A stretch of 41,372 nucleotides of DNA from positions 1 through 41,372 of IMG/VR virus record IMGVR_UViG_2778261576_000004; one strand, 5' to 3'. The DNA is from a virus. Lineage: Duplodnaviria; Heunggongvirae; Uroviricota; Caudoviricetes. Shown here piece by piece: positions 3,738 to 35,103 of the stretch (position 1 is the stretch's first letter; every line of letters begins with the position of its first letter). The position numbers and the translations under genes are program-made. The notes beneath the pieces are model-generated. The model was not told where the DNA came from. It made no database searches and was given only the letters and a program-made list of their open reading frames with translations.

Positions 3738-4555
3738 ATGTACATATCCTGTTTGCGTGCCCACTCAGGGCGTTTAATGATTTCCACACCGCCCCATTCA
3801 TCATTGATGCGGCATTCGTGATAGGTATTCAGATCCCGGCGGAACAGAGCGTGCCCGGCATCGACATCCTGCGCATCCAGCTCGAACACGCGTACCGGAT
3901 ACCGACCACAATCAATGCTTTCGCTCACGGCAAGAAAGAAAAAACCATGCGGCTGACCAGTAACCCTCATTGCGCCTTCGCGGTACATTGCGTCCTGCAC
4001 GTGGTAGCGGAATTCCTCGATGTGGCGTGCAAAACGGTCCATATCTGCAACCTTTTTCACGTCGACGATCACGTTGTGCTCGTTCAGCCATTTGTCTGGA
4101 CGAATTCGGCACAACTCCCCCGTCTCTTCATCGTTCCAGTACATTGATGCTTCGCAGTAACCAGGTGCTTCCAGCATCCAGCGTGCCGCCGGGTGAGCCA
4201 TTGCGCTATCACGCATCAGCTCCAGTTTCCGCCACTGCTCGGCATCAAGTACCGTAATCCCCATATCCGCCACATCACGAAGAAATTCCTCTTCGTCAGC
4301 TTTACCTTGTTTCGTCCGACGATCGAATTTCGGTGAAACAATGAAGCGTTTGTCGAACTCTCCAGGCTCCAGAAGCAGACAGTGCAATGCGGTTCCCATA
4401 TCCAGTGCAGACTTTTTCTCTTCGTCTTCTGGTGCTGCCTGAACCCATTTAAGAAGCGCCGGATTCTTGGCAACCATGTCCAGTTGCGACTTACTCACGC
4501 CGTCACCGGCGTGGTAGTCTTCGTTGCTGATGTCGAAATAAATTCCCGGTTTCAT
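3734..4555 (-). CDS. PD-(D/E)XK exonuclease (RecE/exonuclease VIII-like partner of RecT)
   Basis: 273 aa directly upstream of and coupled to recT; D...D-V-K motif (IRPDKW...VIVDVKK) typical of PD-(D/E)XK nucleases. Confidence 0.7.
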   Translation of the reverse strand: MKPGIYFDISNEDYHAGDGVSKSQLDMVAKNPALLKWVQAAPEDEEKKSALDMGTALHCLLLEPGEFDKRFIVSPKFDRRTKQGKADEEEFLRDVADMGITVLDAEQWRKLELMRDSAMAHPAARWMLEAPGYCEASMYWNDEETGELCRIRPDKWLNEHNVIVDVKKVADMDRFARHIEEFRYHVQDAMYREGAMRVTGQPHGFFFLAVSESIDCGRYPVRVFELDAQDVDAGHALFRRDLNTYHECRINDEWGGVEIIKRPEWARKQDMYI

Positions 4556-4851
4556 GCCGCGTCCCTCTGCCCATCAAGCTGATCAGCCAGATCCCAGCGG
4601 GCGATAATTGCCATTGCCTCGCGCCGGTAGGCATCCATTAGTTCTTCGAACTCAGGGCTGTCTTTAGCGGCCTCCAGTACTTCCTGGCGAACGCCTTTAA
4701 CTGTTACAACGTCGAAAGTTGATGCCAGTTGATGAAGCCGGATACTCTCAATCAGTTCAACTTGTCGGTCATATAGCTGTTCTGACAGACGGTAGTTCTT
4801 GTCGAATGCCAGCATGATTTTTTGAAGATTTTTCTGCTGATTAACGTTCAT
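4552..4851 (-). CDS. Hypothetical early protein
   Basis: ORF in the leftward operon; start at 4851 (MNVNQQ) has an upstream GGGAGGG Shine-Dalgarno; ATG at 4866 is an alternative. Confidence 0.45.
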   Translation of the reverse strand: MNVNQQKNLQKIMLAFDKNYRLSEQLYDRQVELIESIRLHQLASTFDVVTVKGVRQEVLEAAKDSPEFEELMDAYRREAMAIIARWDLADQLDGQRDAA

Positions 4852-4854
4852 TAT

Positions 4855-5006
4855 CAGCCCTCCCATATCTCGTTATCGTTGGCCACATCGCGAGCTTCTT
4901 TGCTGACGAAAGCCCACTTAATGCCTTCCTGTAAGGTGCGGAACTTCCAGCTCATGAATCCGCATGCAGTAACGCAGTACCAACCGTTGATGATTTTCCA
5001 CTGCAT
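4855..5006 (-). CDS. Hypothetical small protein (about 50 aa)
   Basis: Short ORF (MQWKIINGWYCV...) between OL-like sites and the next early gene; below the ORF-track size cut-off; no known domain. Confidence 0.25.
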
Positions 5007-5025: not shown

Positions 5026-5102
5026 TTACCGTTGAGGTAATAATTATGCGTATATGGTTTGATGTCAATAGATATGAGTTAAAAAAATTACCCGTTAGGT
5101 AA
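5026..5102. promoter_or_regulatory. OL-like operator region: two TTACC-N5-GGTAA palindromes (5026-5040, 5088-5102)
   Basis: Two perfect 15-bp palindromes in the intergenic region between the repressor gene and the first leftward early gene. Confidence 0.5.
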
Positions 5103-5113
5103 TCGAATAGGCA

Positions 5114-5138
5114 ATAAAAAAGCCGCCATAAGGCGGCT
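5114..5138 (-). terminator. Rho-independent terminator downstream of the repressor gene (hairpin usable on both strands)
   Basis: AGCCGCC-ATAA-GGCGGCT hairpin (5121-5138) with an A-run upstream on the plus strand, i.e. a U-tract after the hairpin on the minus strand. Confidence 0.6.
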
Positions 5139-5159
5139 TACTTACTGAAAAATATGGTT

Positions 5160-5744
5160 TTATTGTTTGTTTTTTTCGTTCTGGTTGATGACAAATTCAA
5201 TGTAACTTTCGATCTTTGCTTTCTCGGTTTCGGGTAACAATGCGTAGCGCGAGCGATCATAGTTGATGGTCGCAGGGTCGTGCGGGTGAATCAGTAATTC
5301 ATAGCCGTGACGCCCGAATGCGGATGCAACATTCTCCAGGGTGGAAATGGAAACGCTGACCTCATTGTTTAACAGGCGGCTGATTGTCACCTGGGCTACG
5401 CCGGATGCGCGGTGAAGTTTTCCCTGTGTTGAAAGGTCGCGGCTTTCGCTCATCCAGCGTTCCAGGTTGTGAGCCGCCAGCTGGCCAATGTCGCTTGGGC
5501 CGACAGGCTGAAAACCTTCCTGAGAAAGCGAGCGATCGATATCAAGCCAGTTACGGGGTTTATTGGCGGCAGCTTCAATTTTTCGCGCAACCTGATCGCC
5601 GATAACCTTCTTACCAAGAGCCCAGCGGTTTACCAGATTTGCCTGAGTTCCAAGTTTTTCAGCCATCCGCGTCTGAACACCATTGAATTCACGGTCGATC
5701 AAGTCGTTGAGATTTTGCCTGCGGACGTCCTGGATACTTTTCAT
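5160..5744 (-). CDS. Putative prophage repressor (CI-like, tandem HTH, no S24 peptidase domain recognisable)
   Basis: 194 aa; two HTH-like segments (GVQTRMAEKLGTQANLVNRW and GVAQVTISRLLNNE); sits between OL-like and OR-like palindrome pairs, divergent from a Cro-like gene. Confidence 0.55.
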   Translation of the reverse strand: MKSIQDVRRQNLNDLIDREFNGVQTRMAEKLGTQANLVNRWALGKKVIGDQVARKIEAAANKPRNWLDIDRSLSQEGFQPVGPSDIGQLAAHNLERWMSESRDLSTQGKLHRASGVAQVTISRLLNNEVSVSISTLENVASAFGRHGYELLIHPHDPATINYDRSRYALLPETEKAKIESYIEFVINQNEKNKQ

Positions 5745-5799
5745 TTTCTGGAAAATCGCCTCATATATGAATCAGTAGATGATTCAATTTAAAGCAATA

Positions 5800-5862
5800 T
5801 TACCCAACAGGTAAATGCACCTCATGGGTAACTATCCTTGATTTTTGTTACCTTATGGGTGA
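5800..5862. promoter_or_regulatory. OR-like operator region: palindrome 5800-5814 (perfect) and 5848-5862 (one mismatch)
   Basis: TTACCCAACAGGTAA and TTACCTTATGGGTGA in the 154-bp divergent intergenic region between repressor and Cro-like genes. Confidence 0.55.
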
Positions 5863-5898
5863 ATATTTATTATCTGAAATAAATATCAGGCAATAGCT

Positions 5899-6129
5899 AT
5901 GAGCGATAACGGACATTTCGATTTCAAAAAGCACTGGCTTGCACTTACTCCGGATGAGCGTGAAGCCTTCGCACAGGAAGCCGGAACGACGAGTCACTAT
6001 ATCCAGACTCACTTAACAGGTAAGCGCAAAATGCCAGGTAAAGTATTGATGAATGGGCTTTTTAAAGCCTGTAAAACAAGACAATGGCTGCGCTCAAAAG
6101 CAGAACTGGCATACTTCTTCTACTCATGA
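5899..6129 (+). CDS. Cro-like small HTH regulator
   Basis: 76 aa, divergent from the repressor across the operator region; HTH-like segment LTPDEREAFAQEAGTTSHYIQTHLTGKR. Confidence 0.45.
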   Translation: MSDNGHFDFKKHWLALTPDEREAFAQEAGTTSHYIQTHLTGKRKMPGKVLMNGLFKACKTRQWLRSKAELAYFFYS

Positions 6130-6150
6130 TATCCAGCTACAACCCTCTGT

Positions 6151-6175
6151 AGACCGCCACCCGGCGGTCTTTTCA
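6151..6175 (+). terminator. Rho-independent terminator after the Cro-like gene (tR1-like position)
   Basis: AGACCGCC-ACCC-GGCGGTCT hairpin followed by TTTCAT; immediately followed by a one-mismatch palindrome copy at 6185-6199. Confidence 0.5.
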
Positions 6176-6279
6176 TATCTATTCGTACCTCAAAGGTAAT
6201 AAAAAACCAAATATGGTTGATCTTTTTTTTGTGTCAGCACAAAATGACCGTAATCCCAATACTAATAACAGGGCTTACC

Positions 6280-8130: not shown

Positions 8131-8207
8131 TTACCTGTTAGGTAATAAAATATTCTAAAATCTATTGATTTCGTGTCTTATGTGGTTTTTAATTACCTCA
8201 GAGGTAA
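8131..8207. promoter_or_regulatory. Two palindrome copies (8131-8145, 8193-8207) plus a TATGTGGTT box (8179-8187) upstream of the 8211 gene
   Basis: Perfect TTACCTGTTAGGTAA and TTACCTCAGAGGTAA; the second ends 3 nt before ATG 8211 and overlaps the SD. Confidence 0.45.
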
Positions 8208-13925: not shown

Positions 13926-13940
13926 TTACCACAACGGTAA
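13926..13940. promoter_or_regulatory. TTACC-N5-GGTAA palindrome upstream of the terminase small subunit gene
   Basis: Perfect TTACCACAACGGTAA between the terminator and ATG 13958 (17 nt upstream); a partial repeat (CTATTACCAC) follows. Confidence 0.45.
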
Positions 13941-13957
13941 CTATTACCACGGTGGTT

Positions 13958-14554
13958 ATGATGCCTGCTGAACCTAAAACCTATAAACGCAAATCAACGC
14001 AATTTAAGCCGCTCACAGCAATGCAGGAGGCTTATTGCCAGTCATACATCAAAACGCCTGAAAACCAGACTCAGGCAGCGATTAACGCAGGATTCTCCCC
14101 AAATACAGCGGCAGTTAAAGCCAGTGTCATGATGCGCGATGAACGCATTCAAAAACGGATTGCCGAGTTGATGGAGGAGCGCAACAAACGAATGCGCGTC
14201 AGTGCTGATTACGTTCTCATGCGCCTGGTGGAGATCGACCAGATGGACGTGATCGACATCCTCAACGACGATGGGAGCCTTAAGCCAATCCGCGAGTGGC
14301 CGAAAATCTGGCGCACTACGCTTAGTGGCTTTGATCTGTCATCGACCATCATGAACATGAACGAGGATTCGATAGAGACAATCCTCAAAAAAATTAAATG
14401 GCCTGACAAGGTGAAGAACCTCGAACTGATTGGTAAGCACGTCGACGTCAACGCGTTCAAAGAACGCCTGGATGTTAATGTGAATGTGACAATTGCTGAT
14501 CGCATAGCGGCAGCCAGGAAGCGACTCAAAGAACGTCAGGATGGTAATCAGTGA
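13958..14554 (+). CDS. Terminase small subunit
   Basis: Directly upstream of and coupled to the large subunit; HTH-like N-terminus (TAMQEAYCQSYIK...AAINAGFSPNTAAVKAS). ORF-track start 13880 rejected because it spans the terminator. Confidence 0.65.
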   Translation: MMPAEPKTYKRKSTQFKPLTAMQEAYCQSYIKTPENQTQAAINAGFSPNTAAVKASVMMRDERIQKRIAELMEERNKRMRVSADYVLMRLVEIDQMDVIDILNDDGSLKPIREWPKIWRTTLSGFDLSSTIMNMNEDSIETILKKIKWPDKVKNLELIGKHVDVNAFKERLDVNVNVTIADRIAAARKRLKERQDGNQ

Positions 14555-16026
14555 CAGATACAGCGTTATCTCCTGAAGAGCAGTTGATCGAGGATATTGC
14601 AGGGTTCACTCACGATCCGCTTGGCTATGCCCTCTATGCGTTCCCGTGGGGGGAAGAGGGTACTGAACTGGCACATGCCACCGGTCCACGTCAGTGGCAG
14701 GCCGATGCGTTCCGAGAGATACGTGATCACCTGCAGAATCCAGAGACGCGATATCAGCCGCTTATGCTGGCACGTGCTTCTGGTCACGGTATTGGTAAAT
14801 CCGCATTCATCTCAATGCTGATCAACTGGGGCATGTCCACTTGCGAGGATTGTAAGGTCGTGGTGACCGCCAACACCGACAACCAGCTACGAACGAAGAC
14901 CTGGCCGGAAATTATCAAGTGGTCGAACCTTGCTATCACGAAAGACTGGTTTACCTGTACCGCTACCGCGATGTACAGCAATGATCCTGGGCACGACAAG
15001 CGGTGGCGAGCTGACGCAATCCCCTGGTCTGAGCACAACACTGAGGCATTCGCCGGACTACACAACGAGCGCAAACGCATCATCGTGGTATTCGATGAAG
15101 CGTCGAACATTGCGGATCTGGTGTGGGAAGTTGCCGAAGGTGCGCTAACTGACGAAGACACTGAGATTATCTGGGTGGCGTTCGGAAACCCGACGCGTAA
15201 TACCGGGCGATTCCGTGAATGTTTCCGCAAATATAAACACCGCTGGAAAACTGCGCAGATTGACAGCCGGACGGTGGAAGGCACTAACAAACAGCAGTTG
15301 CAGAAATGGGTTGATGACTACGGGGAAGACAGCGACTTCGTTAAAATCCGTGTGCGCGGCATATTCCCTGATGCATCTGAATTGCAGTTTATCCCTACCG
15401 GTCTTACTGATGAGGCAATGAAACGGGTGGTAACCGCTGCGCAGGTGGCGCATGCTCCGGTGATAATCGGTGTTGACCCGGCATATTCAGGCGTTGATGA
15501 CGCGGTGATATACCTGCGGCAGGGGCTACACAGTAAGGTGCTGTGGACTGGCAACAAGACTACCGACGATCTGATTATGGCGAAGCGTATCGCTGACTTT
15601 GAAGACCTGTATCAGGCTGACGCAGTGTTCATCGACTTTGGTTACGGTACCGGTCTGAAGTCAATCGGTGATGGTTGGGGGCGCACATGGCAACTTGTTC
15701 CGTTCGGTGGCGCGTCTACTGACCAGCAGATGCTCAACAAGCGTGGGGAGATGTTCAACTCATGCAAGACATGGCTGAGGCTGGGCGGGATGCTGGATGA
15801 CCAGGAAACAGCGGACGATCTGTCGGCGGCAGAGTACAAAGTTCGAGTGGACGGTAAAATCGTTATCGAACCGAAGGAAGATATCAAGGAGCGGCTTGGG
15901 CGTTCGCCTGGTAAAGGCGATGCGCTACTGCTGACGTTTGCGTTCCCTGTGTCGAAGCGTCTGCGAATTCCCGGGCAGCAGAACCAGCAAGGCAAGGCCA
16001 TCACAGATTACGATCCCTATGCTTAA
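14551..16026 (+). CDS. Terminase large subunit
   Basis: 491 aa; Walker A-like ARASGHGIGKS, Walker B-like IIVVFDEAS and a C-terminal nuclease-type region; GTG start overlapping the small-subunit stop. Confidence 0.9.
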   Translation: MTDTALSPEEQLIEDIAGFTHDPLGYALYAFPWGEEGTELAHATGPRQWQADAFREIRDHLQNPETRYQPLMLARASGHGIGKSAFISMLINWGMSTCEDCKVVVTANTDNQLRTKTWPEIIKWSNLAITKDWFTCTATAMYSNDPGHDKRWRADAIPWSEHNTEAFAGLHNERKRIIVVFDEASNIADLVWEVAEGALTDEDTEIIWVAFGNPTRNTGRFRECFRKYKHRWKTAQIDSRTVEGTNKQQLQKWVDDYGEDSDFVKIRVRGIFPDASELQFIPTGLTDEAMKRVVTAAQVAHAPVIIGVDPAYSGVDDAVIYLRQGLHSKVLWTGNKTTDDLIMAKRIADFEDLYQADAVFIDFGYGTGLKSIGDGWGRTWQLVPFGGASTDQQMLNKRGEMFNSCKTWLRLGGMLDDQETADDLSAAEYKVRVDGKIVIEPKEDIKERLGRSPGKGDALLLTFAFPVSKRLRIPGQQNQQGKAITDYDPYA

Positions 16027-16116
16027 TCCGCTGGTGGGGATAATGTCGTTGATATCCTCTGATGAGGATAAAACAAAGCCAGCTCATCGGCTGGCTGTTT
16101 GTGACATGTCACGGTG

Positions 16117-16488
16117 TTATTGCTCGCTTAGCTTCTGCTTCAGCAAGTAACCTTCGAGCATCCAGATTTTGTTTACAGCATTCTGCCGGGCAATCTTCCG
16201 ACCAATTTCTGCATCAAAGTTTTCCGGGCTTGCACAGGCGCTCTCTCCGGTGACGGTGAAGCCGTTGCGCAGCACCAGGACGCAGAACGTCAGCAGAGAA
16301 AGTGATTCGTGCGGCTGGTAGTTTACCTCTCCGCCAGTATGTTTCGCTTTTATGGCTTTGCCAAAGGCACCATCTTCTGCTGTGAAATATGCCTCCTGAG
16401 CAATAATGCCTTCGATATGGTCTGGCGTAACGCGCGGTGCCGTTTTGCCTTTCTCAACGATTTCTTTTTCGATTTGCTTGTCGTTCAT
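16117..16488 (-). CDS. Hypothetical protein (possibly Gp49/Sf6 gp66-like family)
   Basis: 123-aa minus-strand ORF inserted between terminase and portal genes on the opposite strand; family name from memory only. Confidence 0.4.
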   Translation of the reverse strand: MNDKQIEKEIVEKGKTAPRVTPDHIEGIIAQEAYFTAEDGAFGKAIKAKHTGGEVNYQPHESLSLLTFCVLVLRNGFTVTGESACASPENFDAEIGRKIARQNAVNKIWMLEGYLLKQKLSEQ

Positions 16489-16499
16489 AATCTCACCTT

Positions 16500-16523
16500 A
16501 AAAAAATGCCCGGCGAACCGGGC
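16500..16523 (-). terminator. Rho-independent terminator downstream of the tRNA (minus strand)
   Basis: GCCCGG-CGAA-CCGGGC hairpin with an A-run on the plus-strand side (U-tract on the minus strand), ending just before the SD of the 16488 gene. Confidence 0.55.
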
Positions 16524-16686
16524 GAACTGGAAGCAATGAGTTATGCCTTCCGTGGCTGTACGGGTTTACAGCATGAAGTCATCGCAATGGCGTCCTGCTG
16601 TAAAAAGGGCGGTGATAGTCCTTCAAGGGAAACCATCACCGCCAAGCCCCTGGAACTTCTGGCATCACGGTCCTTAGGCGTGATTC

Positions 16687-16763
16687 TGGCGTGGCATGCA
16701 GGATTCGAACCTGCGACCAACCGCTTAGAAGGCGGTTGCTCTGTCCGACTGAGCTAATGCCAC
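16687..16763 (-). tRNA. tRNA-Arg (anticodon UCU)
   Basis: Minus strand folds by hand into a cloverleaf: acceptor GTGGCAT/ATGCCAC, D-arm GCTC/GAGC, anticodon stem ACCGC/GCGGT with loop CTTCTAA, T-arm GCAGG-TTCGAAT-CCTGC, encoded CCA. Confidence 0.85.
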
Positions 16764-17085
16764 AACGCTGAGAGCACTTAGCCTGTTAAGGCGCCACACT
16801 TTGTCGCGGCTCCATAAATGCTCTCATCGTTGTACCCTCGTCTCTTCCGAGGCGTCACACCGAATCGCCGGGATGGTGAATCCCCGTGCGCGGAATAAAA
16901 CCGCTCGACTTGCACATTCCGGCTACCTGGTTCGTTTGCCCGAGCAAGGGAGGGTGCCCCTTAAACGTATCCAGACCGCTATCGGCGCATGTGCCATACG
17001 CCGTACTGCTCAAAATAAAAGCTCACTCCACCTGTTTAATTTAACGACAAGCCAGTCAGGTTAGTAACCAGAATGAGCTCTTTAG

Positions 17086-17165
17086 TTACCTGAAAGGTAA
17101 TAATTCACGCGTTAAATGTCAACCTTCTACGATAAATAAATCATATGTGGTTAAATTGGTAATAA
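17086..17165. promoter_or_regulatory. Palindrome (17086-17100) plus TATGTGGTT box (17144-17152) and GGTAATA (17159-17165) upstream of the portal operon
   Basis: Same arrangement as upstream of the tailspike gene (35438-35502). Confidence 0.45.
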
Positions 17166-17190
17166 TTTAATTGCGTACGGAGTCATTGAT

Positions 17191-17397
17191 ATGTGCATGG
17201 GTAGCTCACCATCAGTGCCTGCAACACCAGAAGTTCAGGCAGCACCACAGGAGCAGGATGCCGCCGTTGTTGATGCCCGCGACGAAGAAACACGTCGCCG
17301 TCGCGCTGCTGCTGGTCGTAGTTCTACGCTGCTTACCGGTTCTCAGGGCGACACATCAACCGCTAATACCAGCGGTAAAACGCTACTTGGTCAGTAA
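17191..17397 (+). CDS. Hypothetical small protein (68 aa)
   Basis: First ORF after the putative late promoter; its translation initiation region ACGGAGTCATTGATATG is nearly identical to that of the portal gene. Confidence 0.35.
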   Translation: MCMGSSPSVPATPEVQAAPQEQDAAVVDARDEETRRRRAAAGRSSTLLTGSQGDTSTANTSGKTLLGQ

Positions 17398-17411
17398 CCG
17401 GAGTCATTGAA

Positions 17412-19082
17412 ATGGCGGAAACAACTAAAGAGCGATTGAACAAACAGTTCGCACAACTTGAAAGCGAGCGTCAGTCGTTCGAGCCGCACTGGCGCGAGTT
17501 GAGTGATTACATCAACCCGCGTGGTTCCCGCTTTCTGACTTCTGAGGTCAACCGTAACGATCGACGCAATACACGCATTATTGATTCGACCGGGACTATG
17601 GCGGCGCGCACTCTCGCCAGCGGCATGATGTCAGGCATCACAAGCCCCGCGCGTCCGTGGTTTCGCCTGGCTACGCCAGATCCTGAAATGATGGATTATG
17701 GCCCTGTTAAGTTGTGGCTTGAGGCGGTGCAGAACCGCATGAACGATATGTTCAATAAGTCGAATCTCTATCAGTCGCTGCCGCAGTTATACGGAAGCCT
17801 CGGCACATACAGCACTGGTGCAATGGCAGTGCTGGAGGATGACGAGGACATCATTCGCACAATGCCATTCCCGATAGGCAGTTACTACCTGGCTAACTCA
17901 CCTCGTGGCAGTGTGGACACTTGTTTTCGCAAGTTCTCTATGACTGTTCGTCAGCTTGTTCAGGAGTTCGGGCTAAATAACGTCAGCGAATCCGTAAAAA
18001 GCATGTGGGAAAGCGGCACCTACGAGAAGTGGATTGAAGTGATGCATTCGGTTTACCCGAACATTGACCGCGATACATCGAAGCTGGATAGCAAGAACAA
18101 GCCATTCAAATCAGTTTATTACGAGGTTGGTGGCGATAACGACAAGTTGTTGCGTGAGTCCGGATTCGATGAGTTTCCAATTATGGCTCCGCGCTGGGAA
18201 GTTAACGGCGAAGATGTTTATGGATCATCATGCCCGGGTATGCTGGCGCTTGGACCTGTTAAGGCATTGCAGCTTCTCCAGAAGCGCAAGTCGCAGTTGA
18301 TTGATAAAGCCACCAATCCGCCGATGGTTGCTCCGACTTCCCTCAAGAATCAGCGCGCCTCCCTTCTTCCTGGCGACATCACGTATATCGATCAGATTAC
18401 TGGTCAGGATGGTTTCAGGCCTGCTTATCTGGTTAACCCCAGTACAGCAGATCTGGTGGCAGACATTCAGGACACTCGCCAAATCATTAACAGCGCCTAC
18501 TTTGTCGATCTGTTCATGATGTTGCAGAACATCAATACCCGCTCGATGCCTGTTGAAGCGGTGATCGAAATGAAAGAAGAAAAACTTCTGATGTTGGGGC
18601 CGGTTCTGGAGCGTCTGAACGACGAATGTCTTAATCCTCTCATTGACCGCGCTTTCTCGATGATGGTGCGTAAAAACATGCTGCCGCCACCGCCTGACGC
18701 GATGGAAGGTATGCCCCTGAAGGTCGAATACATTTCCGTCATGGCTCAGGCGCAGAAGTCTATCGGCCTGTCCAGTCTGGCATCCACGGTCAACTTCATT
18801 GGTCAACTTGCGCAAGCGAAACCAGAAGCTCTCGACAAACTCAACGTTGATCAGGCGATCGATGCATTCGCTGATATGTCCGGAGTGTCTCCAACCGTCA
18901 TTGTTCCGCAGGAACAGGTTGAGCAGGCTCGCCAGCAACGGGCACAGCAGCAACAGCAGCAACAAATGATGGCGATGGGGATGGCGGCGGCACAGGGTGC
19001 CAAGACGCTAAGCGAAGCTAAAACTTCGGATCCGAGTGTTTTGTCAGCTATGGCGAATGCAGTTAGTGGTCAGGGTGGGTAA
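17412..19082 (+). CDS. Portal (head-to-tail connector) protein, T7 gp8-like
   Basis: 556 aa; Gln/Ala/Met-rich C-terminus (QQQQQQQMMAMGMAAAQGA) and overall layout resemble the T7-type connector as recalled. Confidence 0.8.
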   Translation: MAETTKERLNKQFAQLESERQSFEPHWRELSDYINPRGSRFLTSEVNRNDRRNTRIIDSTGTMAARTLASGMMSGITSPARPWFRLATPDPEMMDYGPVKLWLEAVQNRMNDMFNKSNLYQSLPQLYGSLGTYSTGAMAVLEDDEDIIRTMPFPIGSYYLANSPRGSVDTCFRKFSMTVRQLVQEFGLNNVSESVKSMWESGTYEKWIEVMHSVYPNIDRDTSKLDSKNKPFKSVYYEVGGDNDKLLRESGFDEFPIMAPRWEVNGEDVYGSSCPGMLALGPVKALQLLQKRKSQLIDKATNPPMVAPTSLKNQRASLLPGDITYIDQITGQDGFRPAYLVNPSTADLVADIQDTRQIINSAYFVDLFMMLQNINTRSMPVEAVIEMKEEKLLMLGPVLERLNDECLNPLIDRAFSMMVRKNMLPPPPDAMEGMPLKVEYISVMAQAQKSIGLSSLASTVNFIGQLAQAKPEALDKLNVDQAIDAFADMSGVSPTVIVPQEQVEQARQQRAQQQQQQQMMAMGMAAAQGAKTLSEAKTSDPSVLSAMANAVSGQGG

Positions 19083-25497: not shown

Positions 25498-26072
25498 TGT
25501 GCGATCCGGTTATTGCTGGTGGCGCAATGCTCGCCATGAGTGGCATTCAGGCATACACCCAGTACCAACAGGGAAAGTATGCCTCGAAGGTTGCAGAAGC
25601 GAACGCAGATATAGCCACAGCTCAGGCAAATGATGCAATAAACAGGGGTAACGCTGAAGCTGAGCAACGGCGCAGAGAGACCCGACAGCGGCTTGGTACA
25701 CAGGCGGCGACAATGGGGGCTACCGGCGCTGATTTATCTACCGGTAACGCGCTGGATATATTTGGTGACACTGCTCAGTTTGGCGCTCTTGATTCGCTGA
25801 CGACGGTGAATAACGCGCAACGCGAGGCTTACGGTTATCAGGTTCAGGCTGCCAACTATAAAGCAGAAGCCAGTTCAGCCCGTAAACAGGGGAATGTGGG
25901 AGCAGCAACAACATTGCTCACTGCGCCTCTGAAGGCATACGGTGCGTACCAGATGTTTGGTGGGACGTGGAGTCCGTTCTCTAAAGGAAGTACATCTGGT
26001 GGTGGGACGCCAATGTTATCTAACTCAGGTTTTATGAATTCTGACTCCCGATTCAAAATAGGAGGTTACTGA
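25497..26072 (+). CDS. Putative internal virion protein B-like (gp14 position)
   Basis: 191 aa, Ala/Gly/Gln-rich; synteny and size. Confidence 0.45.
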   Translation: MCDPVIAGGAMLAMSGIQAYTQYQQGKYASKVAEANADIATAQANDAINRGNAEAEQRRRETRQRLGTQAATMGATGADLSTGNALDIFGDTAQFGALDSLTTVNNAQREAYGYQVQAANYKAEASSARKQGNVGAATTLLTAPLKAYGAYQMFGGTWSPFSKGSTSGGGTPMLSNSGFMNSDSRFKIGGY

Positions 26073-28819
26073 TGCCTGTTGTTCCTACTACATCCGGACG
26101 CCAGGTGCAAAGTCGTGGTGTGCAAACCGGTGGTTTTCAGACCTTCGATGTTCCTCAAGCAGGTCAGGTGCTGGCGAATGTCGCAGATCAGTATGCGGTG
26201 GCATATGGTGAAGCCAGGCAGAAAGCGAATGTTGCTATGGCCCAGGAGGCGTTACTGCAATTTAACCAATTTGCAGATGACCAGATTAACAACCCTGAAA
26301 ATGGGCTGATTTCTAAACAGGGTAAAAACGCTCTTGGTCAGAGTGACGCTGTTATGAAAAATATGCAGGAAAGGGCTCAGGCATTATTAGGCTCAATCCC
26401 TGAAAGTGAGGAAAGGAATAAATTATCCTTTCAACTCCAGCAGTCTATGCAGTCTTATTACAATCAGGCACGTCGATATGAAGTTGGGCAGTTTCAGCAA
26501 TTCCAAGATCAAACGTATTTGTCAGGAAATGCATTGGCTGTCACTCAGTCTGCGGGGCTATATAGCGATAACCAAGCATTTGTCGATTTAGCCAAGCAGC
26601 GATTTGAATCTATTGATCAATACGCTGATGCGCATGGGCTTCCTGATGAGTGGCGTGTTCAGCAGAAAACTCAGCTCAAGGAAGAAATGGGGCAGCAAGC
26701 ATGGATAGGAAATATCGCTCAAAAATACAACGAGTTTCTTCAGGTTAATGGAGAGCCAGGGGATCTTGGTGGTGTGAGTCGTGCAATATCACATGGTAAT
26801 TCATTGGATGCTCGTGGTTTACGTAATAATAACCCTGGTAATATTGAAGCGAGCAAATCTAACCCGTGGGAAGGTCAGATCGGTAGCGATGGACGTTTTG
26901 CAACGTTTGCTACCCCTGAGCATGGAATCCGCGCGTTGGGTAAAAATATGTTGTCTTACCAGCGTCAAGGCTATGACACCGTTAGCGAGATTGTTAATCG
27001 CTATGCTCCGGCTAGTGATGGTAATAATACTGATGCTTATATTAGGGCATTGTGTGGTGAGCTTGGTGTTGGGGAGAATGATCAGCTTGATATCTCTAAC
27101 CCAAAGACACTAGCTGCTTTATGTGCTGGGATTATTAAACACGAAAATGGCAGTATGCCTTATAGCACCGAACAGCTTGAAACTGGTATCTCGGCAGCCC
27201 TTGGTCTAACTAACCTTGATTCACCTAAGCGTTATACGGGCAATGCGGCATTTGATGCTATGAGCCCTCAAATGCAAATACAGGCATTGAGGCAGGCTAA
27301 TGAGCTGAGAAATCAGTACCGCCAGCAGTATGCGGACCAGCTTAGCACCGTAGTTAAAGATGCATATTCAGCCCTTGATGAAGGATTGAAACCTGAGAAG
27401 TTACCTTCTGAGGACGATTTTATCCGGGCCAATGGTCCGCGCATTGGCGCTATGAAGTGGAAGGATATGCAGGCGCAGATACAATATGGAGGTGTCATTG
27501 GTGCCGCTAAAGACCTCACTCCAGAAGGACGACAAGACATTCTTGAACGTTTACGTCCACAGGATCCAAACGCTCCTGGATTTGCTGCTAACCAGCAACG
27601 CTGGGAGAAAATGCAGGCCAAATTTAAAGAGATGGATAGGGAGTGGGAGATTCAGCAGGGAAGAAACAGGTTCGTGTCTTCAATGCAAAATAACTTCCCG
27701 CTGGACCCGAACGACAAAAACAATCAGGCAGCGGTAGACCGTTATTTCGCGCAGGATATCGCGCCTTCGTTTTCCATATCTGATCCGCAGAGCATCAATA
27801 CACTGGTCACCGTCACAACTAAAAGCGGCATGATACCAACTCAGGTTAAAACAATGCTTAACAGTGGAGCAACATCAAGAGATCCTGCGCTGGTTGTCCC
27901 GATGGCAAAATTCTACGGTCAGTTATTCGATAATAATCCGGCGGCAGCGGCAACACTTGATAAAAGTACGATGGCATTTTACGGCAAGGTTTACGATTAT
28001 TCCCGCGCTGGCGTGCCGGAGGATAAGGCTGTTGATATGGCTTACAGCCAGGTGTTCCAACAGGATGACCGAATGAAACAGATGCTTTCCACTGCCATGC
28101 GAGACAAAAAATATGTCGCGGCGAGGGCAACTGCTGCACAAAATAACGCCAGCAGTCTGACTTCCTTTGGTTCGTGGTCTCCGGATATTACCGATCCAGG
28201 AAAATCAAATGCGGCCTATCAGCGAGATTACCAGACAATTTACGATGCTAACTTTGTACAGACAGGTGGCGATGCAGAACAGGCTGAGAAAATGACCAAT
28301 GCCATGATCAGAACCACCTGGGGAGTTTCTACGGTTAATGGCAAAGCAGAGGTTATGAAGTATGCACCTGAGGCATTGTACGGAGTAAATAATGGTGCTG
28401 GTAACTGGATACAGGGGCAGTGGGAGCAGGAAAAACGCGAGCTTAAATCAAAATCCTTTGGCGGTCCTCGCAGTGATACGGACTTAATACTTGTTTCTGA
28501 TGGCCTTACGGCAAGGGATAGGAGTTATGCTGTTATGGTTTTACAGCCTGACGCAAACGGAGCGATAGAACCGAGAAATTATATTGGAGAAAATGGTCTC
28601 CCTGTTCGTTTCAAGCCGGATCAGCTGACATCTCCAATGTACAGGCAAACCATTCAGTTACAGCAACAGCGTGTTGATGAGGCTAGAGTGCGGAGAGAAG
28701 GCAATCCGCTGCCGCAGTTCAGCAATAAAGATGGATATACTCCTCCAGATCTGACCAAACCATTCGGTTATGGTTCAGCCAATTACCTTCCGAGCAATAT
28801 ATACGCAGGGGGCAAATAA
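26072..28819 (+). CDS. Putative internal virion (ejection) protein C-like
   Basis: 915-aa ORF in the gp15 position; contains a visibly AT-richer internal segment (about 26.3-27.3 kb). Confidence 0.5.
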   Translation: MPVVPTTSGRQVQSRGVQTGGFQTFDVPQAGQVLANVADQYAVAYGEARQKANVAMAQEALLQFNQFADDQINNPENGLISKQGKNALGQSDAVMKNMQERAQALLGSIPESEERNKLSFQLQQSMQSYYNQARRYEVGQFQQFQDQTYLSGNALAVTQSAGLYSDNQAFVDLAKQRFESIDQYADAHGLPDEWRVQQKTQLKEEMGQQAWIGNIAQKYNEFLQVNGEPGDLGGVSRAISHGNSLDARGLRNNNPGNIEASKSNPWEGQIGSDGRFATFATPEHGIRALGKNMLSYQRQGYDTVSEIVNRYAPASDGNNTDAYIRALCGELGVGENDQLDISNPKTLAALCAGIIKHENGSMPYSTEQLETGISAALGLTNLDSPKRYTGNAAFDAMSPQMQIQALRQANELRNQYRQQYADQLSTVVKDAYSALDEGLKPEKLPSEDDFIRANGPRIGAMKWKDMQAQIQYGGVIGAAKDLTPEGRQDILERLRPQDPNAPGFAANQQRWEKMQAKFKEMDREWEIQQGRNRFVSSMQNNFPLDPNDKNNQAAVDRYFAQDIAPSFSISDPQSINTLVTVTTKSGMIPTQVKTMLNSGATSRDPALVVPMAKFYGQLFDNNPAAAATLDKSTMAFYGKVYDYSRAGVPEDKAVDMAYSQVFQQDDRMKQMLSTAMRDKKYVAARATAAQNNASSLTSFGSWSPDITDPGKSNAAYQRDYQTIYDANFVQTGGDAEQAEKMTNAMIRTTWGVSTVNGKAEVMKYAPEALYGVNNGAGNWIQGQWEQEKRELKSKSFGGPRSDTDLILVSDGLTARDRSYAVMVLQPDANGAIEPRNYIGENGLPVRFKPDQLTSPMYRQTIQLQQQRVDEARVRREGNPLPQFSNKDGYTPPDLTKPFGYGSANYLPSNIYAGGK

Positions 28820-31800
28820 TGCCGATATATGAACAGGATCCTAAAGAGTTGCTTGGCGAGGATATTCAGCAAATAGCAGCACCTGATGACAGTAATTTCT
28901 ATATGGAAACACCTTCTTTGCTTTCTGCTGTGAACCCATTTACCAGTGATCAACGCGTTCAAAGGTCTAGACAAGCAGCATTTCGTATAGATAACACGCT
29001 GGGTAGCTTTATTGCCAGTGCTCCTTTCAGTCAGTTTGACAGGGTTGAAGGATATAACCCATTTGATAACGATGCAGCAGATATTAAAGGCTATGAAGAT
29101 TTTGCAGATTCGTTTATCAACTCCGGTTCGCCTGAAGAAACAATGGCAATTAAACATCGAATCGATCAGCAGAGAGCTGACATGGAATACAATTCAGGCT
29201 TGGGATTTGCTGGTACAGTCTCTTCTGTAGCAATGAGATTAGCAGATCCATTCAATGCGATTTCTATGTTTATTCCGTTCGGCGCTGTTGTTCGTGGCGG
29301 TCGTATTGCAGAAACAGCCGGGCGTTTTGCCCTGGCGAATGCTGCTGGCAGTGTTGCTTCAGAGGCCGCATTACAGGCCACTCAGGAAGCTCGCTCACCG
29401 ATGGAGAGCGTATCGAACGTTGTTGTTGATGCTCTCGTTGGTGGGATCCTTGGTGCTGGTGCACAGCTACTTGCTGGACCTGGCGCGCGCGAGGCAGTGG
29501 TTAACTCAGTAGGTAATCATTTGCGAGGTATGGATTCTCCTCAAAGCATTGGTGCAGCTCAGGTTTTCAATACCACACTCGATCAGGAACAGCTCGCTGG
29601 ACTTGGACTTGCTAACAAAACGTTGAGTGTCACTCCTGCTGGCCGCTTGGCGCAATCACCATCTCTTGTCTCCCGTCAGATTAACCAGCAGCTTGCCGAA
29701 AATAACTATTTCTTCGCCAAAAATGATGAGGGGTTGGCTACGTTTACGGCAGTCGAGACTAAGATTAAGCAATACGACGCCATGCTTTATAAGCAGATGG
29801 AAGCCACTCGTGATGCTTACCAGCAGTACAGCAAATCTGTTAGCGCCCGCGGCGTGAAGAGGATGAACTTTATTGATTTCAATGAAGCTGTTGGCATGGC
29901 TATGCGCCGTGGTGATCAGAGTGATATTCCTGAGGTTTCACAAGCAGCCGCCAGAATCCGCCCCATTTTCGAGACCACAAAAGCCCGTATGCAGGAACTG
30001 GGGATCCTTCCTGAGGATATCGATGTCGTGACGGCGAAAAGTTATCTTCCCCGCATTTATAAGTTCGATAAGATACTTTCCGACCGCACTGAATTCAGAG
30101 GGCGAATTGCCAACTGGATACAAGGGATTAGTGCCAAAGGTGCTGACAAAGCAGGTCAGCGAATTGAAAGGATAAATTCATTGCTAAAAACTGCAGAGGA
30201 ATCGGCACCGCGCGCTGATGCTCTCGCTAGTGAAATCGCTGAAGCGGAGAAATGGTCTGGTAAAAAAATTCTACTCATGGAAGAACTGGATAAACGAAAT
30301 AAGCTTATATCTCAGGAGACTGACACACAGGCGCGTCTTACAAGAATAGAAAAAGAGTTGGCCGAGACTTCATCAGAAAAACTTCAGGCAAGAATGATGA
30401 AAGAAAGCTCTGACCTTAAAACACGCCTTGATGATATAGCGCAGGCAAAGAGTGAGCTTCCTGTCTATCAGCGCCATATGGAGTTGTTGGATAATCCACG
30501 GAAATATCGTTCTGAGCTTCGCCGACTGCAAAAACGGGCAAATTCAACCACAAGGCTGAATGCAAGCCGCGAACGAGCACTGAAGCAGATGGAGCCTCTA
30601 TCCCGAGAGGAAGCAGAGGACGCTGCTGACGAGATCGTGAATAAAATAATAGGCGCACCTTCCGGGCTTGTACCAGCCGATATTATCCCAGAGAGACTCG
30701 TTGGTCGGGCTGGTTTCACTAAAAGCAGAACGCTGCTTATTCCTGATGAGCGTATAGAAGATTTTCTTGAATCAGATGTTAACTACATCATGGAAAGTTA
30801 TCTCCGGCAGGTGGCACCAGAAATTGAGCTGACTGCGCAGTTTGGCCGTAAAGATATGGGGGAGCAAATCCGTCAGGTTAGTGAGGAATATACCCGGCTA
30901 ATAAAAGAGGCTAAAACACCTAAACGACGTGCAGTTCTTGAGAAGCAACGGGAGGCTGATATTAGGGATATTACGGCTATGCGTGATCGACTGCTTGGTA
31001 CTTACGGTGCACCTCAAGATCCACGCAGTTTCTTTGTTCGTGCCGGGCGAGTTGCTAGGAATATTAACTTCCTCCGTTTGCTTGGTGGAATGACCGTCTC
31101 CGCTGCAACTGATCTGATGCGACCGATGATGCAGCATGGCCTGAGAAAATCTCTCGGACCAATGGTAAGCATGCTTAAAAATATGGACTCAGTGAAGATT
31201 GCAACCAGGGATTTGCGAGAAATGGCCGTTGGGCTTGATTATGTCCTGTCTACGCGTACAAAGGCTATAGCGGATCTTACTGACCCATATAGCCGGAGAA
31301 GCGCCGCTGAGCGAGGCCTGAACTGGATGACGCAGAAATTCGGTAACTGGACGCTGATGAATCAGTGGAACAGCGCACTTAAATCATGGTCTGGGATGAT
31401 AGTGCAGTCGAGGATACTTGACGCGGCTCGCCAAGTTTCTGCTGGTGGCACGCTCTCCAAAAGTGAAATGCGGAAGATGGCACAGGTCGGCATCAATGAA
31501 GATGTTCTGCGTCGAATCGGGGAGCAATTCGGGAAGCACGGAGAGGATATGGACGGGCTGTTAACCGGGCATAGTCATCTGTGGGATGACCGTTTCGCTA
31601 GAGAGATTTTCCAGTCTGCAGTGCTGAAAGATGTAGACTCAGTGATTGTAACGCCTGGCGTAGGTGATACACCGCTGTTTTTTAGTAAAGAAGGCTGGAA
31701 GATGATCACGCAGTTCAAAACGTTTATCTTCGCACAGCATAACAGGGTGCTAGTATCTGGTATCCAGCAGGGCGATGCTGCATTCTATCTTGGTGCGCTT

Positions 31801-32208
31801 GGCACGATTGCGCTTGGCTCAATGGTCTATATGATGAAACAGAAGTTAAGCGGTCGCGATATCGACTACAGCTGGAATAACCTTGTGAAAGAGGGGATCG
31901 ACCGGGGCGGAATGCTTGGCTGGCTCTCTGAGCCGCTGAATACCGTTGAGAACATAAGCGGCGGTAGGTTTGGTCTTGGCGCGATGTTTGGTGCGCCTCC
32001 GGTATCAAGGTTTCAGAGTCGTAATGCTATTGGTGCTTTACTTGGTCCTACCTTTGATCTTGGCGGTGATGCCGCGACGGTTGCGAATGGTGTACTTAAC
32101 GGAGAATTTGACAGCCAGCAAACCCACGCGGTCCGTAAAATGCTACCTTTTCAGAACCTGTGGGCGATATCACCGTTACTAAATAAAGTTGAAGAGCAGA
32201 TGAAATAG
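28819..32208 (+). CDS. Putative internal virion (ejection) protein D-like
   Basis: 1129-aa ORF in the gp16 position; long coiled-coil regions and hydrophobic Gly/Ala-rich stretches. Confidence 0.55.
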   Translation: MPIYEQDPKELLGEDIQQIAAPDDSNFYMETPSLLSAVNPFTSDQRVQRSRQAAFRIDNTLGSFIASAPFSQFDRVEGYNPFDNDAADIKGYEDFADSFINSGSPEETMAIKHRIDQQRADMEYNSGLGFAGTVSSVAMRLADPFNAISMFIPFGAVVRGGRIAETAGRFALANAAGSVASEAALQATQEARSPMESVSNVVVDALVGGILGAGAQLLAGPGAREAVVNSVGNHLRGMDSPQSIGAAQVFNTTLDQEQLAGLGLANKTLSVTPAGRLAQSPSLVSRQINQQLAENNYFFAKNDEGLATFTAVETKIKQYDAMLYKQMEATRDAYQQYSKSVSARGVKRMNFIDFNEAVGMAMRRGDQSDIPEVSQAAARIRPIFETTKARMQELGILPEDIDVVTAKSYLPRIYKFDKILSDRTEFRGRIANWIQGISAKGADKAGQRIERINSLLKTAEESAPRADALASEIAEAEKWSGKKILLMEELDKRNKLISQETDTQARLTRIEKELAETSSEKLQARMMKESSDLKTRLDDIAQAKSELPVYQRHMELLDNPRKYRSELRRLQKRANSTTRLNASRERALKQMEPLSREEAEDAADEIVNKIIGAPSGLVPADIIPERLVGRAGFTKSRTLLIPDERIEDFLESDVNYIMESYLRQVAPEIELTAQFGRKDMGEQIRQVSEEYTRLIKEAKTPKRRAVLEKQREADIRDITAMRDRLLGTYGAPQDPRSFFVRAGRVARNINFLRLLGGMTVSAATDLMRPMMQHGLRKSLGPMVSMLKNMDSVKIATRDLREMAVGLDYVLSTRTKAIADLTDPYSRRSAAERGLNWMTQKFGNWTLMNQWNSALKSWSGMIVQSRILDAARQVSAGGTLSKSEMRKMAQVGINEDVLRRIGEQFGKHGEDMDGLLTGHSHLWDDRFAREIFQSAVLKDVDSVIVTPGVGDTPLFFSKEGWKMITQFKTFIFAQHNRVLVSGIQQGDAAFYLGALGTIALGSMVYMMKQKLSGRDIDYSWNNLVKEGIDRGGMLGWLSEPLNTVENISGGRFGLGAMFGAPPVSRFQSRNAIGALLGPTFDLGGDAATVANGVLNGEFDSQQTHAVRKMLPFQNLWAISPLLNKVEEQMK

Positions 32209-34786: not shown

Positions 34787-35103
34787 GATGGCGTCTCCAC
34801 TTAGCGAATTACATCACCACCGCTGAGACCAATCAGATGGTGGTGAACTGAACGGAGTTGGTCTTACCGGCCTAAGTGGTACCGGCGTCCTTTCGGACCC
34901 CCATTCAGCCCACCATAATTCTGGCATGACTGTGCTATACGCATAAAAAAACCACGTCTGGCGTGGTATGCGCCACTTAGTAATCCGGGAGACCAATCCC
35001 GGCACTGGATTTTGCCAGTGCCCGATTACTATGGCACAAGAGGAGTGCGATGTAAATTTACCGCAAAGGTAAATATAAGCACTCCTTTTGGTAATTGCAA
35101 ACC
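34787..35103 (-). other. Structured non-coding leader/spacer with intrinsic terminator
   Basis: Several perfect hairpins (e.g. CCGGGA-GACCAA-TCCCGG, CACTGG-ATTTTG-CCAGTG), a minus-strand terminator (CCACG-CCAGA-CGTGG then T7) near 34943-34964, and a palindrome copy (35058-35072) nested in an 8-bp stem (AGGAGTGC/GCACTCCT). Confidence 0.4.

Follow-up and report, generated by a model that had tools for sequence, protein, structure and literature searches.

A conserved, pseudoknotted RNA of P1-like, lambdoid and epsilon15-type phages that adjoins a tRNA-Arg(UCU) gene or a tRNA-like element

GOLLD, ROOL and the stable RNAs of the T4 tRNA cluster are structured, non-coding phage RNAs of unknown function that are linked to tRNAs and probably co-transcribed with them. 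Genes for tRNA-Arg(UCU), carried for example by Stx and T4-like phages, are thought to compensate for rare host tRNAs, and STnc100 (RF02076) and the related PasD are prophage-encoded, Hfq-associated small RNAs (sRNAs). The put RNAs act in cis to give terminator read-through that depends on the zinc-binding domain of the beta' subunit. Put comprises about 70 nucleotides (nt) and forms two stem-loops (PMC9378689). Here we describe an RNA that resembles each of these in part. It was found in the IMG/VR virus record IMGVR_UViG_2778261576_000004, which was analyzed over its full 41,372 nt and is referred to below as the window. On the minus strand, just 5' of a gene for tRNA-Arg(UCU), lies a structured RNA domain of ~165 nt (16829-17004), which we call the 5' domain. 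The tRNA at this locus, and the terminators and cargo gene that follow it, are known or ordinary. The 5' domain is undescribed, within the scope of Rfam 15, PGAP and GenBank annotations, and full-text searches of the literature.

The 5' domain is a real, conserved RNA with four covarying helices and a pseudoknot. From its 5' end it comprises helix P1 (8 bp), helix P2 (6 bp, long-range, closing around a variable insert), the invariant block GGUAGCCGGAAUGUGCAAG, a variable hairpin, helix P4 (4 bp), a pseudoknot in which the P4 loop CACC pairs with a downstream GGUG, and helix P5 (5 bp, with the loop GAAGAGA). We aligned 30 diverse copies by sequence (alignment A1) and tested a hand-drawn structure against them. 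Standard pairs fill 97.8% of cells, versus 25-46% when partners are slid by 1-3 columns. Both sides have changed in 12 pairs, and none of 500 shuffles reached the observed values. For example, pair 6/18 is G-C in 16 copies and A-U in 14, pair 143/151 occurs as four pair types, and pair 176/186 is either C-G or G-C; in the pseudoknot, pair 146/166 is C-G in 27 copies and A-U in 3. Two G-U pairs are fixed (U7-G17 in 29 of the 30 copies, U30-G90 in all 30), which makes the structure strand-specific and identifies the RNA as one made from the minus strand of the window. The A1 copies were gathered via a 19-mer, so its invariance among them is there by construction; the 19-nt block is also present in every copy found by BLAST, none of which was chosen by the 19-mer.

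Other readings of the alignment were tried. The RNAalifold consensus, which pairs GGCACAU with AUGUGC over a long range and misses the local hairpin P1, was rejected, as positions 6 and 18 covary perfectly. We keep GCAC/GUGC solely as a possible loop pseudoknot, a candidate from the folding model whose columns are invariant. For pairing between the P1 loop and the invariant block the columns show no variation, so covariation gives no evidence either way. A protein-coding reading was also rejected: no frame is open across all 30 copies, their lengths are not multiples of three, and codon periodicity is absent.

A covariance model of the 5' domain (R1) finds a single copy in the window (16829-17004, minus strand; 142.7 bits, E=2.7e-43) and only a remnant in phage epsilon15 (39.8 bits). 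No Rfam 15 family matches the domain when the whole window is searched at gathering scores. At E<=10, the region 16000-17450 yields only the tRNA, apart from a non-significant match taken up below, and nothing on the strand and stretch of the 5' domain. In P1, mEp460 and other copies the domain is unmatched in Rfam at E<=0.5. A full-text literature search found the invariant 18-mer in no paper, either as DNA or as RNA, and the keyword literature (prophage structured RNAs, phiV10 tRNA-Arg, put, mEp phages, HK639 and STnc100) does not describe the domain. A preprint on Pas sRNAs deals with late-region sRNAs, which are different from it. The stretch of 320 bp between the tRNA and the portal promoter region, in which an earlier note on this DNA saw no convincing open reading frame (ORF) or second tRNA, does lack a supported ORF or second tRNA (16764-17190; ARAGORN for the tRNA), but it contains this conserved structured RNA.

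The likeness to putL and putR of HK022 and to the putL-like RNA of HK639 is one of placement, in that each is a non-coding, structured leader RNA of a (for the 5' domain, predicted) repressor-controlled early operon, 5' of terminators. In HK639 a put-like antiterminator RNA is annotated at the equivalent place. Put and the 5' domain are also alike in being found in phages that lack an annotated N gene (PMC9378689). They differ in architecture, as put has ~70 nt and two stem-loops and the 5' domain ~165 nt, four helices and a pseudoknot, and the 5' domain is optional in otherwise identical leaders. Homology to put was considered and set aside, because the architectures differ and R1 found none; its best score against HK022 and HK639 is 7.6 bits (E=0.4), at an unrelated place. 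Like GOLLD, ROOL and the T4 RNAs, the 5' domain is structured, non-coding and physically linked to a tRNA. Unlike GOLLD and ROOL, it has no Rfam match, is much smaller, and is carried by enterobacterial temperate phages.

The 5' domain recurs in phages that otherwise have little in common at this position. BLAST with the 367 bases 5' of the tRNA, which are 100% identical in phage vB_EcoP_PAS61, returned matches of 70-83% identity in phages with unrelated flanks. These include P1-like phages (P1, P7, D6, SJ46, RCS47), lambdoid phages (mEp460, cdtI, Stx2c phages, Ayreon), Klebsiella, Enterobacter and Salmonella phages, and one phage catalogued under Stenotrophomonas. The matched stretches carry no annotation or just "hypothetical protein". 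When the copies are aligned, near-identical blocks stand between hairpins whose arms change in concert. In one case, mEp460_037 (contig L005, 2443-2811, minus strand), an annotated hypothetical protein runs antisense over the structured RNA and is probably a mis-annotation.

An exact search for GGTAGCCGGAATGTGCAAG found at least 120 IMG/VR contigs. Among species-representative genomes it found 24, namely 22 from Enterobacteriaceae genera or Erwinia dacicola and two metagenome-assembled genomes (MAGs). Both MAGs, one assigned to Oscillospiraceae (L139) and one to Bacillota (L151), contain the exact 19-mer, and the L151 copy is full-length (163.7 bits). These copies in Firmicutes-labelled MAGs are likely due to contamination or to a mis-binned enterobacterial phage contig. 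In complete E. coli genomes, a 247-base query matched 1840 of 5426, with no underlying feature annotation; the CPS-53 remnant of K-12 is without the RNA. One contig (L027) carries two copies in tandem on the minus strand (4800-4958 and 3993-4153), about 650 bases apart. The second is changed in P2 and in the 'invariant' block, with GGAAGCUGG replacing GGUAGCCGG.

We examined the surroundings of the RNA in 105 distinct contexts with enough flank; these are related by descent, and counts from them are not independent. The RNA comes right after a cI-type S24 repressor gene, on the same strand, in 58 contexts, and lies in the gap between the terminase and portal genes of Uetakeviruses in 32. Nine further contexts are P1-like, between trnI and ban, and six are of other kinds. 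The next ORF is on the strand of the RNA in 91 of the 105. In mEp460, where the N gene is not annotated, the cro/cI operator motif TTGC-N7-GCAA recurs just 5' of the RNA, suggesting that the RNA heads the PL transcript. It is followed there by a homologue of the first terminator of the window unit (T1, below), a second long hairpin with a U-tract and the first early gene, with no promoter in between, a layout that is the same as in the window. The P1 ban operon, which holds the 5' domain, is under C1 control. Together, the repressor and operator evidence from P1, lambdoid phages and Uetakeviruses indicates that the RNA belongs to an early transcript under repressor control, where it lies in sense and 5' of genes; we infer the promoters of these units from their sequences. 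Terminator-like hairpins are enriched downstream of the 5' domain under lax rules (85% versus 63%). Given that 63% of control windows were positive in this test, it was repeated with stricter rules, which gave 29% versus 8.5%.

In this region the window has 96% identity to Escherichia phage phiV10. Both phiV10 and vB_EcoP_PAS61 are epsilon15-type podoviruses of the genus Uetakevirus. Here the whole locus is very probably a single repressor-controlled leftward unit placed between the terminase and portal genes. Its parts, in order, are a promoter with an operator (17122-17086), a leader hairpin, the 5' domain (17004-16829), a hairpin that we call P6, tRNA-Arg(UCU), a trailer hairpin with terminator T1, a conserved spacer, a terminator T2 fused to a ribosome-binding site, a swappable cargo gene, and a terminator T3.

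The putative sigma-70 promoter (17094-17122, minus strand) was read from the sequence and has a -35 element TTGACA (17122-17117), a 17-nt spacer and a -10 element TACCTT (17099-17094). TTGAC(A/C), the 17-nt spacing and TACC(T/C)T are kept in Tyrion, a Klebsiella ST512 phage, epsilon15 and PAT1. Our promoter scan passed over this leftward candidate, as TACCTT is too weak a -10 for the scan tool. Over the -10 and the predicted start lies an operator-like palindrome, TTACC-N5-GGTAA (17086-17100). Allowing at most one mismatch, the palindrome has 14 sites in the whole window versus 0.66 expected (5026-6199, 8131-8207, 13926-13958, 17086-17100, 34043, 35058, 35438 and 38409). They look like a phage-wide operator set, one site of which sits on the promoter of the RNA-tRNA unit. 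Epsilon15 carries the homologous site next to an IHF site, and there it bears the annotation of a repressor binding site. The long leader hairpin that follows, AAAGAGCUCA...UGAGCUUUU (17017-17083, minus strand), is specific to Uetakeviruses, and its arms change together between relatives (AAAGCGCGC/GUGCGCUUU). In epsilon15 its homologue is annotated as an 'RNaseIII mRNA processing' site.

Downstream of the 5' domain, P6 (16762-16833, minus strand) is a 15-bp stem (16833-16819 with 16776-16762) around a variable insert, and its last two pairs involve bases G1 and U2 of the tRNA. In an alignment of 17 sequences (A3), picked because P6 was visible in them, P6 is paired in 90.6% of cases versus 29-51% in slid controls, with both-side changes in six pairs. 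P6 is part of the downstream module and persists where the 5' domain is absent.

The tRNA-Arg(UCU) (16687-16763, minus strand) is real, but it is ordinary and already known from close relatives, being annotated in O157 typing phages 9 and 10, phiv142-3, SPN9TCW and SPC32H. The earlier note had called it from sequence alone, with this anticodon and with no second tRNA nearby. ARAGORN agrees on each point, finding a single tRNA in the whole window, with anticodon tct at position 35, and Rfam model RF00005 matches over positions 1-71, its full length, at 73.3 bits (gathering score 29). The CCA end is encoded (...AUGCCAC-G-CCA). Also as described, the gene lies on the minus strand between the large terminase gene (14551-16026, plus strand), the left neighbor of the locus, and the portal gene (17412-19082, plus strand; Pfam Head-tail_con, E=1.5e-187). 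The ORF annotated as hypothetical protein PhiV10p04 (16506-16757 in the window, plus strand) runs antisense over the tRNA and is probably a mis-annotation.

The proposal that a UCU tRNA would assist the decoding of AGA also holds. In the 46 long ORFs of the window, AGA is used 7.5 times per 1000 codons and makes up 12.6% of Arg codons, and AGG is used 6.1 times per 1000. Usage of AGA in E. coli is about 2-3 per 1000 codons, roughly 4% of Arg codons. In the phage, AGA clusters in late tail and injection genes (26072-32208 and 35557-37686) and also in certain early ones, with no AGA codon in the portal or capsid genes. We predict that the tRNA is excised by host tRNA-processing enzymes, with RNase P cutting its 5' end at the end of P6, and that it would supplement AGA decoding in a phage whose AGA use is ~3 times that of E. 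coli. In its anticodon, canonical cloverleaf and AGA-enriched phage, this gene is like other phage tRNA-Arg(UCU) genes. It differs from them in being embedded in a composite RNA unit, in replacing a tRNA-like element, and in having its first two bases fused to P6.

A tRNA-Arg(tct) is found in just 24 of 114 distinct 620-base extracts. Most of the others have at the same position a cloverleaf-shaped, tRNA-like element of the form GUGGUGAA-[GCGC-AGGCUGAU-GCGC]-variable-[GCCGG-AGAUCAGCA-CCGGC]-CACCACAAC, with covariation in each of its hairpin stems and with complementary loops, GCUGAU and AUCAGC. Its copies (L005, 2741-2872; L016; L007; L146; and others) have an acceptor-like stem, GUGGUGA/UCACCAC, and an elbow-like kissing pair of loops. 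The L016 copy also has an anticodon-arm look-alike, GCGGA-CUUUUAA-UCCGU. The possibility that the element is a real tRNA was rejected, as ARAGORN calls only 21 tRNA-Arg and 2 tRNA-Ile among 96 slots and the calls at 70% thresholds scatter.

The tRNA-like element, with the trailer and T1, scores 42.4 bits (L167, 3161-3384) and, in P1, 33.4 bits against STnc100, for which the gathering score is 47. In relatives among the lambdoid phages, and in some among the Uetakeviruses, the module after the 5' domain, made up of a P6-like hairpin, the tRNA-like element, the trailer and T1, matches STnc100 below that threshold; the 5' domain itself lies outside the STnc100 model. The P1 match (L004, 1558-1677; P1 70080-70199) is between upl and tciA. 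In the ban operon of P1, the new 5' domain lies 0.9 kb beyond this STnc100-like module. Region 16000-17450 of the window has no hit to STnc100 (47-bit threshold) at E<=10, since a true tRNA-Arg fills the tRNA-like part, and it retains the homologous trailer and T1. Where Uetakeviruses have the tRNA-like element, their identity to the window is 86% in the trailer and T1, 85-88% in the inter-terminator segment, and 87-97% in the junction of T2 with the Shine-Dalgarno (SD) sequence. From the homology of these parts we conclude that the phiV10 lineage has a true tRNA-Arg in the slot of a tRNA-like sRNA module, which appears to be a new observation. In HK639, between the Q and holin genes (L156, 44895-44919), 25 bases match the T-arm-like hairpin of the tRNA-like element at 96% identity. 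This match in a late-operon leader suggests that tRNA-like modules also occur behind late promoters, as reported for PasD.

Two terminator-like hairpins, T1 and T2, were found by the terminator scan on the minus strand 3' of the tRNA, where a single one had been proposed. The trailer (16602-16686, minus strand) consists of a hairpin AUCACG...CGUGAU, a linker and T1, and is homologous to the 3' part of STnc100-type phage sRNAs. T1 (16643-16608), a 14-bp stem followed by CUUUUU, closes the tRNA unit, is the stronger of the two, and has a homologous hairpin in lambdoid copies. T2 (GCCCGG-UUCG-CCGGGC; 16523-16508, minus strand), 164 nt downstream of the tRNA, is followed by A and seven U (16506-16500). 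The conserved segment between them (16524-16601, minus strand) has three predicted hairpins and is 85-98% identical in PAT1, Tyrion, a Klebsiella phage and epsilon15. The predicted fold of 16489-16690 has a z-score of -3.1, and a RyhB-like match within the segment (Rfam at E<=10) is weak and not significant (E=2.5). T3 (16077-16096, minus strand) closes the leftward unit against the convergent terminase gene, and a putative rho-independent terminator is annotated there in phiV10. T1, T2 and T3 all have the form of intrinsic terminators, a GC-rich hairpin and a U-tract on the transcribed strand. The scan is weak on its own, as it reports four sites across the whole 1.7-kb region versus 1.9 expected; we retain the three as candidate terminators because conservation and compensatory changes back it. 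In epsilon15, T2 differs by compensatory changes (GCCCAC-UUCG-GUGGGC) and is annotated as a rho-independent terminator.

At the junction of T2 with the SD sequence (16492-16523, minus strand), the SD AAGGUGAG is fused to the U-tract. The tract ends at 16500, AAGGTGAG occupies 16499-16492, and the ATG is at 16488. The terminator that abuts a ribosome-binding site, as the earlier note put it, is therefore real as regards the U-tract of T2; T2 is not the first terminator after the tRNA, as the stronger T1 precedes it. From the tRNA to this ATG the promoter scan detected nothing promoter-like, in agreement with what had been proposed, and expression of the gene by terminator read-through is plausible from the arrangement of these signals.

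This cargo gene (16117-16488, minus strand; 123 aa), previously considered an orphan, belongs to the Phage_gp49_66 family (N4 Gp49 / Sf6 gene 66). Its protein matches Pfam PF13876 at 119.5 bits (cut-off 27; E=8.9e-35; profile positions 1-82 of 82) and phrog_322 at E=1.3e-62, and the gene is annotated as PhiV10p03 in phiV10 and epsilon15p50 in epsilon15. Behind the conserved junction the gene is swapped among relatives, encoding gp49_66, a DUF2829 protein, or a 142-aa protein of unknown function. The gp49_66 protein has no detectable similarity to the DUF2829 protein that a Klebsiella phage encodes in this position. The junction itself is 87-97% conserved (16486-16523 compared with homologues in L006-L009 and L124). 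That it is kept while the gene is swapped suggests that it is a functional expression signal, and it resembles a fixed junction for exchangeable cargo genes. Overall, the observations in the earlier note were confirmed in part, and its interpretation is partly supported.

What the 5' domain does must be judged from its placement and conservation. The leading reading, which is possible though still doubtful, is that it is a cis-acting antiterminator leader RNA for read-through of T1 and T2. Like the HK022 put RNAs, it would act on the RNA polymerase that is transcribing it, such that polymerases that have made the domain read through both terminators and the promoterless cargo gene is expressed; in lambdoid phages that lack N, the same action would serve the early-left operon. 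An early promoter, a structured RNA, strong terminators, promoterless genes and no N together reproduce the layout of the HK022 and HK639 put RNAs, and the constant sense placement inside operons favors a role in cis. Several findings weigh against antitermination. There is no likeness to put in sequence or structure, and neither HK022 nor HK639 yields a significant R1 hit. The 5' domain is present in only 15 of 80 loci that share the first early gene, T1 and T2, so read-through of these terminators does not generally need it, and in one class of loci a promoter leads directly into the tRNA-like module. Epsilon15 retains T2 and the gene, yet has only the 39.8-bit remnant of the RNA. P1 has no terminator behind the domain, the unit in the window serves one small gene only, and the contexts share descent, so that their counts lack independence. 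The optional, modular and occasionally tandem occurrence of the domain favors instead an accessory role in trans. In this view RNase P would cut at the neighboring tRNA or tRNA-like element and so free a stable RNA from the early message. That RNA might then bind or titrate a factor of the host or the phage, serving for instance as a protein sponge or as a decoy that counters a defense system. We regard this as unlikely, if well worth weighing. An add-on present in 15 of 80 otherwise identical leaders behaves as accessory 'moron' functions do, and one contig has two copies in tandem. The 19-nt block, identical in all copies examined including those found by BLAST, and the conserved loops would make a typical binding surface. 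A tRNA (trnI before it in P1, tRNA-Arg after it here) or a tRNA-like module is nearly always adjacent and could supply processing sites, and expression is predicted to be early in all three phage types. Yet the RNA was never seen free-standing with its own promoter and terminator, nor antisense to its neighbors (in 91 of 105 contexts the following ORF shares its strand), its 3' end is undefined in P1, and a known partner is absent.

The tandem copies also fit a riboswitch-like sensor, in which a ligand or cellular signal would shift the fold and so set read-through of the downstream terminators or, in P1, translation of ban. Such a sensor would account for a pseudoknotted, conserved core with variable peripheral hairpins, for a location in 5' leaders ahead of terminators and genes, and for downstream 'platforms' that differ between phages. 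We think it quite improbable, as T1 is about 190 nt further on, past a swappable tRNA or tRNA-like module, P6 belongs to that module and remains when the domain is absent, and gene content offers no clue to a ligand; mutually exclusive pairing of the domain with T1 or T2 was not seen in folds or alignments, in a search that was not systematic. The contact of P6 with tRNA bases 1-2, the upstream hairpin annotated as an RNase III site in epsilon15, and the tRNAs or tRNA-like modules that adjoin the domain would suit a scaffold for processing or stability. In that case the leader would protect the early transcript and place RNase P and RNase III so that they can mature the tRNA or the STnc100-type sRNA, and would have no function after cleavage. 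This is very unlikely, since the pseudoknotted fold and 19-nt invariant block far exceed the demands of that role, the majority of phage tRNAs and of STnc100-type modules manage without the domain, and in P1 the domain comes after the tRNA rather than before it. A last reading, in line with the earlier note, takes the locus as no more than a tRNA 'moron' whose terminator leaks, and the spacer as non-functional filler. The note's observations of the tRNA and of T2 with the SD are correct, and epsilon15 survives without most of the spacer, but filler is scarcely credible for a stretch that is 70-83% identical among P1, lambdoid, Klebsiella, Enterobacter and Salmonella phages despite unrelated flanks and that has compensatory changes in five helices. 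Antitermination by the 5' domain, joined to the anatomy of the unit, remains the best explanation as a whole; we hold it tentatively, its standing being set by the mechanism.

Two further features of the window lie outside the unit. Directly 5' of the portal gene is a small conserved ORF of 68 aa (17191-17397, plus strand; phrog_831, E=2e-36), annotated as gp3 in epsilon15 and without a Pfam family match. At 34836-35021 (minus strand), isrK (67.7 bits) and C4 antisense RNA (61.2 bits) adjoin each other as a P1/P7-type c4 immunity RNA module, and the pair is also present in mEp460 (L005, 206-394).

P1, lambdoid phages and the prophages of E. coli are among the best-studied genetic systems, yet a pseudoknotted RNA of 165 nt that about one in three complete E. 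coli genomes carries has had neither a family nor an annotation, and here and there spurious 'hypothetical proteins' have been annotated antisense to it. At the least, it warrants a new Rfam family entry, and the mis-annotated ORFs can be removed. That a phage tRNA can occupy a slot filled elsewhere by a tRNA-like sRNA module is relevant to the acquisition of tRNAs by phages and to the origin of prophage sRNAs such as STnc100 and PasD. It is conceivable, although we lean against it, that the 5' domain represents a new class of RNA that reprograms host transcription or senses a signal, as a large, put-independent processive antiterminator or a riboswitch-like regulator, and that serves as a mobile early-operon module in P1, lambdoid and epsilon15-like phages, upstream of a slot for a tRNA or a tRNA-like, STnc100-type element. 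Antitermination, if true, would explain how a gene behind two terminators is expressed, and the position of the RNA at the head of early operons in lambdoid phages without N opens to test how such phages pass their early terminators.

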